Shown here: positions 31,167 through 61,777 of the stretch, piece by piece
How the letters are laid out: each line of letters begins with the position of its first letter
Numbering within the stretch: the first letter of the stretch is position 1
NCBI GenBank assembly: GCA_039630085.1
Contig: JBCNVM010000004.1
Location: 55,466 to 119,465, forward strand
Reading direction: 5' to 3'
Source of the DNA: Candidatus Caldarchaeales archaeon
GTDB lineage: Archaea > Thermoproteota > Nitrososphaeria_A > Caldarchaeales > Calditenuaceae
Length of the DNA: 64,000 nucleotides
Program-made: the position numbers and the translations under genes
Notes under the pieces: model-generated
The model's input: the letters and a program-made list of their open reading frames with translations, nothing else
Databases searched by the model: none
Told to the model about the DNA's origin: nothing

Positions 31167-31943
31167 TCACATCGGCCTCCTCAGCCTGCGGTGGAGCATC
31201 AGGAAGACGACGGAGCCGTGGACCAAGGGCGTCAGCCAGAGGAGGAGGGCCTCGGTCCAGGTGAGGCTGACGAGGCCCGCGGCCGCCTGCATCAGCCTCG
31301 CGGGAGAAGTGGTAGGGGAGACGAACGCCAAGTACCTCAGCTCGGGCCACGGAATCCTCTCGAGCGGGTAGAAGACCGGAGGCAGGTAGGAGAAGACGCC
31401 GGTGAAGATCGGCGAGTACACCCAGAGGTCCCTGATGTCCCGGGCGAACGTGCTGATGTAGTAGCCTATCATCGAGACGATCGCCCACGTCGCCGCCAAC
31501 GCCCCGAAGAAAACAGCCCAGCTCCAGAGCTGGTTAACCCCCGCGAGGGCCCAGAGCAGGACTCCGAAGACCAGCATCCCCGGGAGCGCGTTGATCAGGT
31601 TCCCGAGCGCCAGCCCCACCGCGTAGGGTATCAGGCCTCCCTTGGTCAGGACGAACATCGACTCGATCTTCAGGATCAGCCTGTTGAAGGCCGCGTCCGA
31701 CTCCATCGTGATCGAGTTGGCAACGACGATCGAGGTCATCCCGCCTATCAGGGCGTAGGGCACGATCTCCCGTATCCCGTAGACCGAGAGGAAGAGGAGG
31801 AAGGCCATCGGCGCCAGCATCGGCGAGAGCGACCAGAGGGGGTTCTGCTTGAACGGGATCACCCCGAATAGCATCGTCGATGCGTAGACGGACTTCAGGA
31901 AGGAGACCAGGCCCTCAGCGAGCCTCCTCCTCAACGTGACCAC
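31167..31943 (-). CDS. ABC-2 type transporter permease
   Basis: Multi-TM; PPVFYP. Confidence 0.8.
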   Translation of the reverse strand: MVTLRRRLAEGLVSFLKSVYASTMLFGVIPFKQNPLWSLSPMLAPMAFLLFLSVYGIREIVPYALIGGMTSIVVANSITMESDAAFNRLILKIESMFVLTKGGLIPYAVGLALGNLINALPGMLVFGVLLWALAGVNQLWSWAVFFGALAATWAIVSMIGYYISTFARDIRDLWVYSPIFTGVFSYLPPVFYPLERIPWPELRYLAFVSPTTSPARLMQAAAGLVSLTWTEALLLWLTPLVHGSVVFLMLHRRLRRPM

Positions 31944-32829
31944 CCGCCAGCAGGATGAAGGCGTCCTCGAGCGAGGTCCGGGAGACGTTCACCCTCCACC
32001 CCCTCCAGATCGCGACGTCAGCGAGGTCCCTCGCGCCAGACCCGGTCGTCAGGACCCTGAACCGGTCTCCGATCCTCCTGACCAGACCGTAGGCGTTGAG
32101 CTCATCGGGGTCCGCGTCGCCCTCGACGTCGACCCTGTACTCGTACTCGACGGCCCTCATCACCTCCTCGACGCTCCCAGTGACGATGATCCTTCCGTAG
32201 TTTATGATCGAGATCCTGTCGGAGATCGTCTCGGCCTCCTCCATGTTGTGCGTGGTGACTATGACCGTCCTCCCCTCCTCGGAGGCCCTCCTGATCTGGG
32301 ACCACATCGTCGTCCTAGAGATGGGGTCGAGTCCGATAGTAGGCTCGTCGAGGAAGAGGACATCGGCCTCGGTCGCCATCGCCATAGCGACGTAGACCCT
32401 CTGCCTCATCCCTCCCGAGAGGTTGCCGCAGATCACGTCCTTGACCTCCCAGAGCTCCATCGCCTCGAGGTACTCCCTCGCCCTCCTCGCGGCCTCGTGA
32501 CCCGGCATGCCCCTCGCGATCAGGTAGTAGTAGACGTGGGCCCACGGCGTCGAGAGGTTCGACGGCCTCCCCTCCTGCGGCACCACCGCGATCCTCCTCC
32601 TGATCCATCCGGCGTCCGCGACCACGTCGCGTCCAAGGACCCTGACCGTGCCCTTGCTGGGCTTGAGGAGCGTGCAGGCTATCCTGATGAAGGTCGTCTT
32701 CCCGGCTCCGTTCCTCCCGAGGAGCGCGAAGACCTCGCCCTCGTTGACCGCGAGCGTCGCGCCCTTCAGGACCCAGTTCTGGCCGTCGTAGGTCTTCCAG
32801 AGGTCCTCCGACTCGACCGCCGCGCCCAT
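31915..32829 (-). CDS. ABC transporter ATP-binding protein
   Basis: GRNGAGKTT, LSGGMRQR, FLDEPT. Confidence 0.93.
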   Translation of the reverse strand: MGAAVESEDLWKTYDGQNWVLKGATLAVNEGEVFALLGRNGAGKTTFIRIACTLLKPSKGTVRVLGRDVVADAGWIRRRIAVVPQEGRPSNLSTPWAHVYYYLIARGMPGHEAARRAREYLEAMELWEVKDVICGNLSGGMRQRVYVAMAMATEADVLFLDEPTIGLDPISRTTMWSQIRRASEEGRTVIVTTHNMEEAETISDRISIINYGRIIVTGSVEEVMRAVEYEYRVDVEGDADPDELNAYGLVRRIGDRFRVLTTGSGARDLADVAIWRGWRVNVSRTSLEDAFILLAGGHVEEEAR

Positions 32830-32867: not shown

Positions 32868-33557
32868 TCACCCACGCCTCCTGATCAGCGCGTGCGCGAG
32901 CCTGCCCTCCAGCACGAACTCGAGGAGCTCGTTGCCGGTGATCCTCGACCAAGCCCTGACCTCCCGCTCGGCGTTCTCGTCGGCCTCCGCTACCAAGTGG
33001 ATGACCTGTCCGGGAGGGACCTGCCTGATCGCGTCGGCCAGAACCAGCAGCGCTTGGCTGCACTCGACTCCCAAGGCCGCCATCACGACGTCCGGGACCT
33101 CCTTGAAGCACACGATCCCCCTGCTTCTTATCTCCTCGCTGAGGGCCTCGGCCACCTCACCGAACGTCCTGAGCCTCTCCCTGTATCCGGCCTCGAGCGG
33201 CCTCAACTTCGCGATCCAGCCCCGGTTGTATGGGTCCGACTGGCAGAGGTGCGGGACCTCAAGTAGCTCCCGGTTCGCGTCGACGACCTCGGCCCTGAAC
33301 CTCGCGTTAACGTGCCCCACGAACTTCTTGGCCTCGACGAACGCGATCGACCTGCCCTCCTCGACGACGGTCCCGGGAGGCTTCGGCCTAACGGATGTCA
33401 CCTTGCCCCACTTCGTCTGAGTAGTCGGGAGCACTCCCACGGTCATGATGTCGCCCTCCTCCATGTACCAGCTCTCGTTCTCGAGGTCGTAGAGGGCCCT
33501 CCTCGGTAACGCGCAGCCGTTCACGACCAGCACCTCCTGTCCCTCCGAGACGCCCAT
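32868..33557 (-). CDS. GcvH/LbpA-like lipoyl-carrier domain fused to a TusA-like sulfur carrier
   Basis: NGC.LP...LY, VEAKKFVG, DPY.RGW, GIVC; then ALGVECSQAL...PGQVIHLV......EVRAW....GNEL...IRR. Confidence 0.8.
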   Translation of the reverse strand: MGVSEGQEVLVVNGCALPRRALYDLENESWYMEEGDIMTVGVLPTTQTKWGKVTSVRPKPPGTVVEEGRSIAFVEAKKFVGHVNARFRAEVVDANRELLEVPHLCQSDPYNRGWIAKLRPLEAGYRERLRTFGEVAEALSEEIRSRGIVCFKEVPDVVMAALGVECSQALLVLADAIRQVPPGQVIHLVAEADENAEREVRAWSRITGNELLEFVLEGRLAHALIRRRG

Positions 33558-33672
33558 TCGCTCCGCGCCCCACATTCGGTGGCCGGCTTTAAGCCGTGCA
33601 GGTCCACTCCGACCGAGGGACACCGTCGACCGCTGAAGGCTGAAATTCGGGCCGGCGGACTCGGGTTCGGGA

Positions 33673-44016: not shown

Positions 44017-44436
44017 TCACTCGGTCTCGCTGGCCTCCAGCTCCAGCTCCTCGATGTACCTGGTGTACTCGTCGGGCTGCATCAGGTCCTCCAGCTCCGT
44101 CGCGTCGGAGACTTCTATCCTGCAGATCCACCCGTCCTCGTAGGGGTATTCGTTGATCAGCTCAGGGCTGTCGATGAGCCTCGCGTTCACCTCGACGATC
44201 TTCCCGCTGACCGGCGCCCTCACCTCGTGGCTCCCGCCGACCGACTCGATGGTCGCGAGGTGCTGGCCCCTGGTGAGCTTGGTGTTGATGTTCGGGAGCT
44301 CGACGTAGAGTATCTCCCGCAGCTTCCTCTGGACGTAGTCAGTTACCCCGATCACCGCGTGTCTGCCCTTGTGCCTGACCCACTCGTGGTTCCTCGAGTA
44401 GCTCAGGCCCTCTGGAACCTCGTAGGCGGTCGACAT
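44017..44436 (-). CDS. GcvH-like protein lacking the lipoyl lysine
   Basis: HEWV, IGVTDY, YVELP, IESVGG (canonical ESVK), APVSG, PELIN..PY..GW. Confidence 0.85.
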   Translation of the reverse strand: MSTAYEVPEGLSYSRNHEWVRHKGRHAVIGVTDYVQRKLREILYVELPNINTKLTRGQHLATIESVGGSHEVRAPVSGKIVEVNARLIDSPELINEYPYEDGWICRIEVSDATELEDLMQPDEYTRYIEELELEASETE

Positions 44437-58691: not shown

Positions 58692-59348
58692 TTAACGGTC
58701 CGAGTCGCGCATGATGCTTTTCAGTGCTCTGCCCTTATCGGTCAGCCTCACCGCAAGCGACCTGCCCGCCTTTTCTACCTCGATGAGCCCAAGCCTCTCG
58801 AGCTTCCTGATCCGCCTCCAAGCAGAAGTCTTGGGGAGATCTAACAACTCCGACAACACAGAAATCGAATACACGTTAGTTAGATGTTTCAGCACCAGTC
58901 TGTCTAAATGGTCGGTTTCGTTGAAAATGACCGGATCGAAGTAATCGTTCCTGAAGCTTATGTAGGCTGAACTGTCTTCGCTTTCAAGCTCAATGGTCAT
59001 ACGTGTCTTACTCATCAGCGCGCCGATCAGGCACTCGATCACGAGAAGCCTCATTCCTCCGCTCAAGTTGAGGACGGCGGTGTTTCCAGCCCACGAGTCG
59101 AACATCTCGACGAGCTCGCCGACGGTGCCGAAGAAGTCGTCCACGTTCACCTCAACCCTCTCAACGCCCTCGATCAGGAGGTATCTCCTTAGGATCTCCC
59201 TCAGGGACCCAATCGCCGATTCCGAACGTTCATCCACCCTGTGCGCAGGCGTTATCACTACAACGCGGTCTAGTTGAGAGTTAGAGTGCCGAATAACCGC
59301 CCTGACCGCGAACTTCTCGTCGAAGCCAAGTGTGACCGTCAGGATCAT
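58692..59348 (-). CDS. csa3: CRISPR-associated CARF-wHTH regulator Csa3
   Basis: TLGFDEKF, NLSGGMR, C-terminal HTH ending LT.KG; divergent from the cascade genes. Confidence 0.9.
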   Translation of the reverse strand: MILTVTLGFDEKFAVRAVIRHSNSQLDRVVVITPAHRVDERSESAIGSLREILRRYLLIEGVERVEVNVDDFFGTVGELVEMFDSWAGNTAVLNLSGGMRLLVIECLIGALMSKTRMTIELESEDSSAYISFRNDYFDPVIFNETDHLDRLVLKHLTNVYSISVLSELLDLPKTSAWRRIRKLERLGLIEVEKAGRSLAVRLTDKGRALKSIMRDSDR

Positions 59349-59353
59349 CGACT

Positions 59354-59389
59354 CAATAGTTTCTTTAAGCCGAAATAAAGTTTCTATTG
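59354..59389. promoter_or_regulatory. Interrupted palindrome in the csa3/cascade divergent promoter
   Basis: CAATAG-N3-CTTTA-N8-TAAAG-N3-CTATTG. Confidence 0.45.
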
Positions 59390-59462
59390 TTTCAAATTGA
59401 TGGAATGTATTCCGCTCCTATAGAATAAGTCTTATATACTATCTATTAACCTTCTCTGTCGC

Positions 59463-59909
59463 ATGATGAGGAGCGAGTCTGTCCAACAGGATCTTGCGCG
59501 ATTCAGGCCGATAGCCGTCTTGCTGGCTGCAGCCTCAGCCCTGAGCGGTTCCCCTTCAATGATAGATAGGATGGCTAACGCGTTGAGCCCTGAGCCTGCC
59601 ATTCGAACGCTACGGGACTCGCTGAGGCTAGTCGACAGCGAGCTATCGCGATCCGAGAGCGAGCGGAGGCTCAAGTTCGGCATCGGAACAGCAGCCACGG
59701 GGCGAGAGTATCGGGTCATCGAGGTGAAGGACGAAACCGGCGTATTCCAGATTATAGGACACCTGCCCAGCAGCGAGATGGTGAGGGAATTCATTGACAG
59801 AGTCCAAAACGATACTGCGCTCGCGAGGAAGATTGGCGCGTATGCTTCGGCAATATTGGTTGAATCGAGATCGAGAGCTCCTCTAGCTCAAGAGAACGAG
59901 GTGAGATGA
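59463..59909 (+). CDS. csa5: Type I-A small subunit Csa5 (Cas11)
   Basis: DRMANALS.E, LPS; first gene before cas7. Confidence 0.8.
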   Translation: MMRSESVQQDLARFRPIAVLLAAASALSGSPSMIDRMANALSPEPAIRTLRDSLRLVDSELSRSESERRLKFGIGTAATGREYRVIEVKDETGVFQIIGHLPSSEMVREFIDRVQNDTALARKIGAYASAILVESRSRAPLAQENEVR

Positions 59910-59910
59910 G

Positions 59911-60933
59911 GTGTTCCTAAGCATTTCCGTTAGGTGCCTGATGAACGTCGAGGCCCTCAACTCGGTTGAGACCGTCGGCAACCTGTCGAGGCATCGGACC
60001 GTCCCGATGGTGATCCCACAGCGCGACGGCTACACGCTGAAGTACGTGCCTGCAGTGTCTGGAGAGTCAATCGCCCACGGATATCAGGCCTTGTTAGTCG
60101 ACGTCGCGAAATCCTTGAGTCTGCCAGTTGGAGAGTTCTCATCTAGATATGAGTTCATCAAGTTCTCCGAGGATAGTTACCTAAAGGTGGAAGGCGTCGA
60201 GCCGCCAAAGAGCTACGATGACATCAGGAGGTTTGAAGTGGACGTGTTGCTAAAAGACGTAGTTGCTGACGTCGGCGGGTTCCTCTATACAGGCGACATC
60301 CCGGTCAAACGTACGTCCCGCTTCCAAGTTGGGTACATGATTCCAGCGATTCAAGACGTGCTCGACGCGACCGCGATGGAGGCGGAGTTCCACGTTCGGT
60401 ATCTGTTCTCGCAGGCTGAGGAGGGGGCTGCGCTCGGTCAGATCCCTTACAACGTGGAAATAGCTTCGTCCGTGTACACGTTAAACCTGAACATCGACTT
60501 GGCTGGGATCGGCGTCCCATCCAGTTCATTCGGGGGAGCCCCTAAGGGAGCGCGCGACGAACTCAAGAAGAAAGAGCAGGAGCTGCGTGAATCGATCCCC
60601 CGCAGGAGAAGGGCTGCCCTGATCGCGCTCCTCAAGCTGCTCGCTAACAACTCCTTCGGCGGGAAGAGGTCGAGATTCCTCCCTAACTCTGAACTTAGAT
60701 CGTGTGCGTTCGCGCTGGCCGACGATGCCTTCACGGTCTCTCCGGGGAACTACACCGATTACGTTCAAAGGACGTGGGCGCGGGCACAGAAATACTCGGC
60801 GCTGACTGGTCATGCCGTTAAGGTGTGGTGCGTGAACAAGGAGGGGTTGAACGTGCCCGACGGAGTATCGAAGCGTGAGACTATCGAGGACATCTTCGAG
60901 GACATCATGAAACTAACCTTAGAGGGCAGATAG
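59911..60933 (+). CDS. cas7: Type I-A Cas7 (Csa2/DevR)
   Basis: ALN.VE..GN..RHR, VSGES.AH.YQ, DVGGFL, GGKRSRFLP. Confidence 0.93.
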   Translation: MFLSISVRCLMNVEALNSVETVGNLSRHRTVPMVIPQRDGYTLKYVPAVSGESIAHGYQALLVDVAKSLSLPVGEFSSRYEFIKFSEDSYLKVEGVEPPKSYDDIRRFEVDVLLKDVVADVGGFLYTGDIPVKRTSRFQVGYMIPAIQDVLDATAMEAEFHVRYLFSQAEEGAALGQIPYNVEIASSVYTLNLNIDLAGIGVPSSSFGGAPKGARDELKKKEQELRESIPRRRRAALIALLKLLANNSFGGKRSRFLPNSELRSCAFALADDAFTVSPGNYTDYVQRTWARAQKYSALTGHAVKVWCVNKEGLNVPDGVSKRETIEDIFEDIMKLTLEGR

Positions 60934-60943
60934 ACGACAGAAC

Positions 60944-61777
60944 ATGATGAGCCTGACAATAGACGTCAGACTTTGCTGGGGTTTCAGCGTCAAGACTCCC
61001 TTAGTCTCTAAGGCTCAGCATGCGTATTCCTCGCCCCCTCCGCCAACGACGATCATCGGAGCGGTCTCAAAGCCCCTGTGCGTGATGGGCAGGAAGGGAG
61101 AGATCATCGCCGTCCCTCGCAAGGGGGAGTCGACCCTCGGTTCGAGCGCGGAGCTTTACAAGGATATCTTCGCCTCTGCCTCCGCGTTCTTTACGGTTGA
61201 GGAGGACGGAGAAAGGCACATCGGAAAATACTGGGAGGACATAGTGAGGTATCAGACCTTGCAGTTCCAGAAGCCTGTGAGGCGAAGTCTGCCGCGATAC
61301 AGGTTCAACGTCGTACCTGCGGGCAAGGTCTACATGCCTTCTGGACTGATGAGGTTAGGCCTGCTCGTGAGGGAGGAGTCAGCGGAGGAGATGCTCGGGA
61401 AGGACTGGGAGCACTCACTACTCGTGGCGGCTAACTCGATCACGGCCATCGGCTCCAAGGAGAGCATCGTCTCGGTCGAAGGGGCGGACCTCAGGAAGGC
61501 CGCGGTCGCCGGGCGGGAGTTCAAAACCCACTACTATCATCCCAAGAGGTTGGTAGAGGAGGTCCTCGAATACGGGGGCGGGCCTTACGACCTGTCAGGC
61601 GTTTACACGGAGTCCTTCTGGGCGGTCGATTACCTCTGGGCAGGCGAGCCCGAATCGGAAATGTACGTCGTTCCCGGCAGTAGGGACCCGGTCTCAAGCT
61701 GCTGGATGAGGATCAGGTTGACCAATGGCAGCGAGGCCTACAAGGTGGGAGAGGATGGGCTCGCGGTCTTTAAATGA
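60944..61777 (+). CDS. cas5: Type I-A Cas5
   Basis: WGFSV, PPPTT.IGA, GSKES.VSV. Confidence 0.9.
   Translation: MMSLTIDVRLCWGFSVKTPLVSKAQHAYSSPPPPTTIIGAVSKPLCVMGRKGEIIAVPRKGESTLGSSAELYKDIFASASAFFTVEEDGERHIGKYWEDIVRYQTLQFQKPVRRSLPRYRFNVVPAGKVYMPSGLMRLGLLVREESAEEMLGKDWEHSLLVAANSITAIGSKESIVSVEGADLRKAAVAGREFKTHYYHPKRLVEEVLEYGGGPYDLSGVYTESFWAVDYLWAGEPESEMYVVPGSRDPVSSCWMRIRLTNGSEAYKVGEDGLAVFK

Follow-up and report, generated by a model that had tools for sequence, protein, structure and literature searches.

The window analysed here is a 64,000-nucleotide stretch of a Candidatus Caldarchaeales archaeon (GenBank assembly GCA_039630085.1, contig JBCNVM010000004.1, positions 55,466 to 119,465), and its minus strand encodes, in a single polypeptide, an H-protein-fold domain of the LbpA type followed by a TusA-fold domain. 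Three cysteines of this fusion (C15, C150 and C166) are almost invariant among its relatives, whereas the residue in line with the lipoyl lysine of H-proteins (K78) is not, and given that the cysteines are conserved and the lysine is not, the family as a whole cannot depend on lipoylation. It is suggested, with a probability of roughly 0.55, that the fusion is part of a lipoate-independent, cysteine-based relay of sulfane sulfur that is fed by a rhodanese. The first-pass annotation had described the protein as a single-chain relay passing sulfur between the TusA cysteine and lipoamide: that it is a true LbpA-like/TusA fusion is upheld and is joined by a rhodanese context in the relatives, but the lipoamide step is not upheld as the mechanism of the family.

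Conservation was assessed in 38 cluster representatives and in 30 species genomes, the window's own included. C166 is kept in every member of both sets (38/38 and 30/30) and C15 and C150 are each kept in 37 of the 38 representatives and in all 30 genomes, the lone representative that lacks C15 (P0025) also lacking C150. Position 78 is occupied in the representatives by arginine (23), lysine (12), valine (1), threonine (1) or serine (1), so that 35 of the 38 have a basic side chain there, and in the species genomes by arginine (18), lysine (9), asparagine (2) or valine (1). The variation reaches into the window's own genus, where lysine is present in the window's genome (G000) and G180, and arginine in G145 and G315, and on the tree of the family, which is weakly resolved, at least 10 switches between lysine and another residue are required. 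The fourth cysteine of the window protein, C105, is not conserved among the representatives, and the residue that follows C166 varies, being serine in 22, alanine in five and proline in five of the 38. Conservation of both the cysteines and the lysine had been proposed as a test of the earlier reading, and the outcome is divided: the three cysteines are nearly invariant and the lysine is found in only 12 of 38 representatives and nine of 30 genomes. Since arginine replaces lysine in most relatives, two species of the same genus included, transfer between the TusA cysteine and lipoamide does not hold as the family mechanism. The pattern of conservation could also be read as three cysteine ligands of a metal or iron-sulfur site, and the loss of C15 and C150 together in P0025 would be in keeping with this. 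It is, however, the least probable of the explanations weighed here: the conserved columns offer no obvious fourth ligand, both domains come from families that act through persulfides, and the rhodanese neighbour would be left unexplained.

This neighbour was identified in the relatives. A profile search for the fusion in 401 genomes of the phylum found it at full length in 34, the other matches being to the H-fold part only, and gene context was inspected over up to 20 kb around 20 of the fusions. There is one broadly conserved neighbour, a protein of ~281 residues with two rhodanese domains and the active-site loop CRIGERS, which fits the CRXGXR pattern of classical thiosulfate sulfurtransferases (PMC11094781). 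With the rhodanese ortholog of the window's genome as query, matches were obtained in 109 of the same 401 genomes, and all 34 that bear the fusion have an ortholog. In 29 of these 34, no more than 350 nt separates the two genes, with the rhodanese upstream and co-directional in 26 and convergent in three; in one further genome they are 4.4 kb apart, and in the four searched genomes of the window's genus they stand on different contigs (the rhodanese of the window's genome is at C2:28390-29226). The adjacency spans at least five GTDB families and two orientations, and the convergent order recurs in two further named Nitrososphaerales-type metagenome-assembled genomes. The sulfur-relay role proposed in the first-pass annotation is thus backed by a conserved rhodanese neighbour. 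The remaining neighbours are lineage-specific or housekeeping genes: a tRNA intron endonuclease, a GlmS-like gene, EtfAB with a FixC-like gene (in one family) and an ABC transporter gene pair (in the window's family).

A different role, in which the fusion is a thiol-disulfide redox protein or a sensor of sulfane sulfur, C15-C150 cycling and the TusA domain serving as a docking or sensing module that might control, for example, the ABC exporter, is improbable, given that sulfur transfer is indicated by the invariant cysteine at the TusA site and by the rhodanese gene that is adjacent in 29 of 34 genomes. Furthermore, the ABC ATPase and permease genes that would suggest such a link follow the fusion in 4 of 21 loci, all of them in the window's own GTDB family, and a Pfam scan found no DNA-binding or signalling domain in the fusion protein. 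In favour of this role, the two conserved cysteines of LbpA2 are within disulfide distance in an AlphaFold model (bioRxiv 10.64898/2026.10.01.755906), and genes for AhpC and Rdx lie within 2 kb upstream of the rhodanese in the window's genome.

Several genes close to the rhodanese or the fusion were considered as partners and set aside. The rhodanese of the window's genome is followed by a gene for a 296-residue protein with a metallo-beta-lactamase fold, the two genes together spanning C2:28390-30180 (L057:7986-9774). This could be a persulfide-dioxygenase-like enzyme; it was retained neither as a partner nor as a named persulfide dioxygenase, no NCBIfam family scoring above its cut-off. In loci L045-L050, from another GTDB family of the same taxonomic order, genes for EtfB, EtfA and a FixC-like FAD oxidoreductase directly precede the rhodanese-fusion pair on its strand, at a distance of ~2.5-6.3 kb from the fusion; they do so in all six loci of that lineage and also in L047, and were discarded as lineage-specific. 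The occurrence of SQR does not track that of the fusion: of the 61 genomes of the order, 39 have an SQR, with fusion-less lineages among them, and for some fusion-bearing genomes none was found. An in-frame TGA in the SQR matches of relatives was considered as a selenocysteine codon and proved to be an ordinary stop codon in the three genomes checked.

The fusion itself is well defined. The open reading frame on the minus strand (32868..33623) translates into 251 residues from a GTG, and the ATG at 33557 gives a protein of 229 residues whose length and start are shared by the closest homologs. Pfam GCV_H matches residues 23-141 (E 1.6e-22, 80.1 bits against a cut-off of 22.2) and Pfam TusA matches residues 162-226 (E 5.4e-6, 26.6 bits against a cut-off of 28.6 in hmmscan, and 28.6 bits in a six-frame search of the genome), with precomputed Pfam TusA annotation listed for six of 10 close homologs, the query included. 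The AlphaFold2 model, made with 38 homologs, has a mean pLDDT of 95.7 and a pTM of 0.88. In Foldseek, its residues ~18-142 match H-proteins (1onl_A, TM 0.89 by target, rmsd 1.8) and its C-terminal ~75 residues match E. coli TusA (3lvj_C and 3lvk_B, TM 0.82-0.86 by target); no solved chain with both domains was found among the Foldseek matches of the model. Sequence matches in the PDB fall to the same two structures, 1onl_A for the N-terminal part (E 5e-17) and 3lvj_C for the C-terminal part (E 1.8e-3). The profiles for GCV_H and, at about its cut-off, TusA meet on one chain, and both the N-terminal GcvH fold and the C-terminal TusA fold that had been read from the sequence were recovered. The residues are also where the first-pass annotation had placed them: K78 is the second lysine of VEAKKFVG and lies, without a gap, opposite the lipoyl lysine of the Thermus thermophilus H-protein (1onl), the N- and C-terminal cysteines stand as G14-C15 and V149-C150, and C166-S-Q-A takes the place of CPxP, the active-site motif of TusA. 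Compared with TusA (E. coli TusA/YhhP, 1dcj and 3lvj, and the TusA associated with sHdr and Dsr), the second domain has the same two-layer alpha/beta fold, with the cysteine at the start of helix 1 (C166 begins helix 166-179 in the model) and a D/E-rich loop and a conserved tryptophan in the second half, and it differs in the motif ECSQA, in a Pfam score that does not exceed the cut-off and in the LbpA-like domain in front of it.

Judged by its sequence relationships, the N-terminal domain is of the LbpA type and not a canonical GcvH, and C15 and C150 are the signature pair of LbpA, in which one cysteine lies close to the start of the H-fold and the other close to its C-terminal end, both lacking in GcvH (Cao et al. 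2018, PMC6067878). This assignment draws on the cysteine pair, the pattern of the unfused relatives, a tree, the isoelectric point (pI) and a tblastn match. HMMER, run exhaustively over 1.84 billion cluster representatives, yielded 912 matches at E<=1e-3. Some 40 of the top matches are fusions over their full length (215-250 residues, 26-39% identity), and the next-best are stand-alone proteins of 145-160 residues with GC at the N-terminus, ESGKWVGP as the lipoyl site and a cysteine at the C-terminus, often within xCFRC; an xCF(R/K) context is common to C150 of the fusion and the C-termini of these unfused LbpA-like proteins. Two of the latter were seen in their gene context (L068 and L070), in clusters of the order DsrE-TusA-HdrC1-HdrB1-HdrA-...-LbpA-LplA, that of L068 also with two radical-SAM genes. 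In the tree of 75 H-fold domains, comparing LbpA with GcvH as had been proposed earlier, canonical GcvH forms a well-supported clan (SH-aLRT 99), outside of which the 38 domains from the fusions cluster together with moderate support (80), and the LbpA-like proteins fall between the two without a resolved position. The median pI is 6.3 for the N-domains of the fusions (6.2 for that of the window protein), 5.3 for LbpA-like proteins and 4.15 for GcvH, a shift that fits the difference in charge between LbpA and GcvH reported in bioRxiv 10.64898/2026.10.01.755906. When the window's genome was searched by tblastn with an LbpA from a verified sHdr cluster, the best match was the fusion gene (E 5e-14), and the NCBIfam models for GcvH scored the fusion at 43.9 bits against a cut-off of 115.85 and 75.5 against 117 (TIGR00527 and NF002270), below the equivalog level. 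The LbpA-like identity given in the first-pass annotation is thus sustained by the cysteine pair, the relatives of the ESGKWVGP type and an acidity lower than that of GcvH. With GcvH, the fusion shares the overall fold and a Pfam GCV_H score above threshold; it is unlike GcvH in its NCBIfam scores, its position outside the clan, its extra cysteines and a genome in which GcvT and GcvP were not found. With LbpA (PMC6067878) it shares the H-protein fold, the two terminal cysteines and the lesser acidity, and its nearest unfused relatives by sequence are LbpA-like. It is unlike LbpA in that the lipoyl lysine is strictly conserved in LbpA and is lysine in 12 and arginine in 23 of 38 members of the fusion family, in that LbpA genes sit with shdr, sLpl(AB) and LipS1/S2, none of which was found in the window's genome, and in that LbpA stands alone (~145-160 residues) whereas the fusion adds the TusA domain. 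Among the HMMER matches is also a protein of 1391 residues (P0038) with three GcvH-like repeats followed, as judged by eye, by an FAD-linked oxidase part and a cysteine-rich C-terminus of the iron-sulfur type.

The gene content of the genome (1.41 Mb in 66 contigs, 89.9% complete) bears on whether K78 carries a lipoyl group. The genome has LipA (378 bits) with an LplA-B_cat gene (123 bits) next to it (C23:14400-15876); both are sufficiently accounted for by its one E2 acyltransferase with a lipoyl domain. GcvT (PF01571) and GcvP (PF02347) were not found in the 89.9%-complete genome, and tblastn with queries from verified clusters gave no match in it for sHdrA, sHdrB1, sHdrB2, sLplA, LipS1 or LipS2 and, for sHdrC1 and sHdrC2, only short ferredoxin-like matches and no orthologs. 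A search for lplA and dsrE had also been suggested: an LplA-type catalytic domain and a DsrE are present, but the LbpA-specific sLplA was not found. Given this inventory, it is possible that K78 is lipoylated in this and the other lysine-bearing species and that sulfur moves between the TusA cysteine and the dithiol of lipoamide, with the cysteine pair as an auxiliary. K78 aligns with the lipoyl lysine, E75 and the hairpin context are kept in the window protein, LbpA proteins are lipoylated (PMC6067878), LipA and the LplA-type gene are at hand and, as a GcvH homolog encoded elsewhere in the window (44017-44436) has glycine at this position, the fusion is the only H-fold protein of the genome with a lysine there. 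This scenario is nonetheless unlikely for four reasons: first, two species of the same genus have arginine at position 78 and the family has switched at least 10 times between lysine and other residues; second, tblastn found neither sLpl(AB) nor LipS1/S2 in the genome; third, canonical ligases prefer the acidic surfaces of GcvH (bioRxiv 10.64898/2026.10.01.755906), and the N-domain of the window protein has a pI of 6.2; and fourth, the lipoyl domain of the E2 already accounts for LipA and LplA.

The GcvH homolog at 44017-44436, on the minus strand, is the second GCV_H gene of the window and, with 126 and 142 bits, exceeds the NCBIfam cut-offs for GcvH. Its product aligns without a gap to the pea H-protein, IESVGGSHE against VESVKATSD, which puts glycine at the position of the lipoyl lysine. 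By its sequence it looks like a lysine-less GcvH of unassigned role, in a genome where GcvT and GcvP were not found.

The same inventory argues against a place for the fusion in sHdr-type sulfur oxidation. A search of 61 genomes of the order found sHdrB1 in four, two of them among 29 genomes that the phylum profile search had shown to bear the fusion, and genomes with sHdr keep a separate lysine-bearing LbpA with its own ligase adjacent. Because sHdr was not found here, is rare in the order and is accompanied by a separate LbpA where it occurs, the fusion is not regarded as an sHdr component, and the sHdr link raised in the first-pass annotation is unsupported, sHdrA/B1/B2, sLplA and LipS1/S2 not having been found in the 89.9%-complete genome. 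Both halves of the fusion are known partners in sHdr (PMC6067878, PMC11094781) and two relatives, G058 and G303, carry an sHdr-LbpA cluster besides the fusion; that fused LbpA and TusA would feed an sHdr complex as an accessory is nevertheless very unlikely in view of the genes not found, the counts in the order and the separate LbpA and ligase of the sHdr genomes. One member of the window's genus with an incomplete genome, G403, has an sHdrB1 ortholog (C13:7056-8309) that is 82% identical to that of G058; none was found in the window's genome and the other five searched members of the genus, so that even among members of the genus the occurrence of sHdr is patchy.

Two TusA genes of the ordinary stand-alone kind are also present in the genome. 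One is in a cluster of DsrE (DrsE_2), TusA and a type III SQR-like gene (C45:93822-95823; L058:7483-9484), the last with 277 bits in the SQR family and below the cut-off of the selenoprotein subtype, and the other is beside a YeeE-type transporter gene on C12. The cluster and the pair indicate several separate sulfur-trafficking modules in this organism.

In the relay that is favoured here, the fusion would be a cytoplasmic two-domain sulfur carrier. The tandem rhodanese, of the thiosulfate type by its CRIGERS loop, would load its own cysteine with sulfane sulfur drawn from thiosulfate or a persulfide and pass this sulfur to C166 of the TusA domain as a persulfide. The C150/C15 pair, tethered six residues before the TusA domain, would take the sulfur over from C166 and either hand it to a downstream acceptor or resolve it, releasing sulfide and closing a C15-C150 disulfide, in which case the pair would be a protein-built counterpart of dihydrolipoamide. 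Lipoate would not be needed for the function of the family, and lysine or arginine would be kept at position 78 for its charge and not for modification. In the window's genus, the rhodanese gene would have moved to another contig, with the carrier gene standing ahead of an ABC exporter instead, and the rhodanese-fusion system would work without sHdr. Two published observations point the same way: Aquifex TusA co-purifies with LbpA2/LbpA3 (PMC11094781), and, according to work cited in PMC6067878, rhodanese can pass sulfane sulfur to dihydrolipoate. Both suggest that a protein dithiol takes the place of the lipoyl arm. The stronger claim that the fusion is a self-contained, lipoate-free counterpart of LbpA and TusA, in which the C15-C150 dithiol does the job of dihydrolipoamide on sulfur that arrives through the rhodanese and the TusA cysteine, is put forward tentatively, the odds being against it as it stands. 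The proposed relay resembles the rhodanese-TusA-DsrE cascades of sulfur oxidisers (Tanabe et al. 2024, PMC11094781) in its combination of a rhodanese with a TusA-type carrier, in its use of protein persulfides and in the association of TusA with LbpA, which in Aquifex is physical. It is unlike them in that TusA and the LbpA-like module are one polypeptide, in that the rhodanese is of the tandem-domain CRIGERS type, and in that the pair occurs mostly in genomes where sHdr was not found.

Several points weigh against this relay. All of its sulfur-transfer steps are inferred, and it gives no role to the downstream ABC genes. The rhodanese is unlinked in the window's genome and in the three other searched members of the genus, so that the partnership is carried over from gene order in more distant relatives, and since 75 genomes have the rhodanese without the fusion, it is the more general enzyme and not a dedicated partner. 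The counts of co-occurrence overstate the support, because related genomes are not independent. The proximity of C15 and C150 in the fusion would follow by homology from the LbpA models, the TusA domain does not exceed the Pfam gathering threshold and lacks the CPxP motif, and the presence of K78 in a genome with LipA and an LplA-type domain makes a lipoyl arm in the window protein possible.

Around the fusion gene, TrmO, the ABC-2 permease and the ABC ATPase are encoded downstream and TiaS divergently upstream, in agreement with the neighbours named in the first-pass annotation, which had also seen no sHdr, gcvP/T or lipoylation genes in the window, and none was seen here. The ABC gene pair (31167..32829) begins 38 nt downstream of the fusion gene on the same strand and may be co-transcribed with it. 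Given its restriction to 4 of 21 loci and to one GTDB family, the exporter was set aside as a part of the system. Towards the end of the window (58692-61777) are CRISPR-associated genes, with Csa3 at 58692-59348 on the minus strand and Cas7/DevR-Csa2 at 59911-60933 on the plus strand.

Table 1. Coordinates, in window positions, of the fusion gene, its domains and key codons, and the adjacent transporter genes.
Feature	Position	Strand	Basis
LbpA-like/TusA-like fusion gene, 229 aa	32868..33557 (stop codon included)	-	Open reading frame, Pfam GCV_H and TusA, AlphaFold2 model, homologs of same length and start
LbpA-type H-protein-fold domain, residues ~10-152	33102..33530	-	GCV_H 80 bits, Foldseek 1onl_A, unfused LbpA-like relatives, tree placement
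C15 codon, N-terminal LbpA-signature cysteine	33513..33515	-	gca on the plus strand = TGC
K78 codon, aligned with lipoyl lysine of H-proteins	33324..33326	-	Gapless alignment to 1onl
C150 codon, C-terminal LbpA-signature cysteine in GIVCFKEVPD, just before the TusA domain	33108..33110	-	
TusA-fold domain, residues 157-229	32871..33089	-	Pfam TusA scores, Foldseek 3lvj_C/3lvk_B
C166 codon at the TusA active-site cysteine position, motif ECSQA	33060..33062	-	Conservation; helix 166-179 in AlphaFold2 model
DrrA-like ABC ATPase	31915-32829	-	Pfam ABC_tran; NCBIfam drrA subfamily 232.8 bits, below cut-off of 312
ABC-2-type permease	31167-31943	-	

A search of the full-text literature, with the supplements of the key papers outside its reach, found no paper describing an LbpA-TusA or GcvH-TusA fusion. 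The domain architecture is already named by the automatic annotation of IMG, and the ESM Atlas has eight clusters with the pair GCV_H and TusA, the three shown having 76 to 135 members, mostly from Nitrososphaerota. The fusion is an uncharacterised variant of known sulfur-carrier families, and what is particular to the window is the retained lysine, the rhodanese that has moved away and the ABC exporter after the gene. The annotation can be corrected in that the fusion is not a glycine-cleavage H-protein and is not evidence for sHdr-type sulfur oxidation, and is unlikely to be a lipoyl carrier. LbpA is an established partner of TusA in dissimilatory sulfur oxidation, but the role of its cysteine pair is unexplained; the pair is dispensable for recognition by the ligase (bioRxiv 10.64898/2026.10.01.755906). 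A natural fusion that keeps this pair and the TusA cysteine and freely loses the lipoyl lysine offers a test of whether the LbpA scaffold can function through cysteines only. The relay would also provide a function for a gene pair that is widespread in Nitrososphaeria-type archaea. If the fusion is indeed a self-contained, lipoate-free counterpart of LbpA and TusA, the cysteine pair would be an ancient core chemistry of the LbpA family and the lipoyl arm an add-on, and among thermophilic and ammonia-oxidising archaea many would possess a two-gene route, so far undescribed, for the sulfur of thiosulfate.

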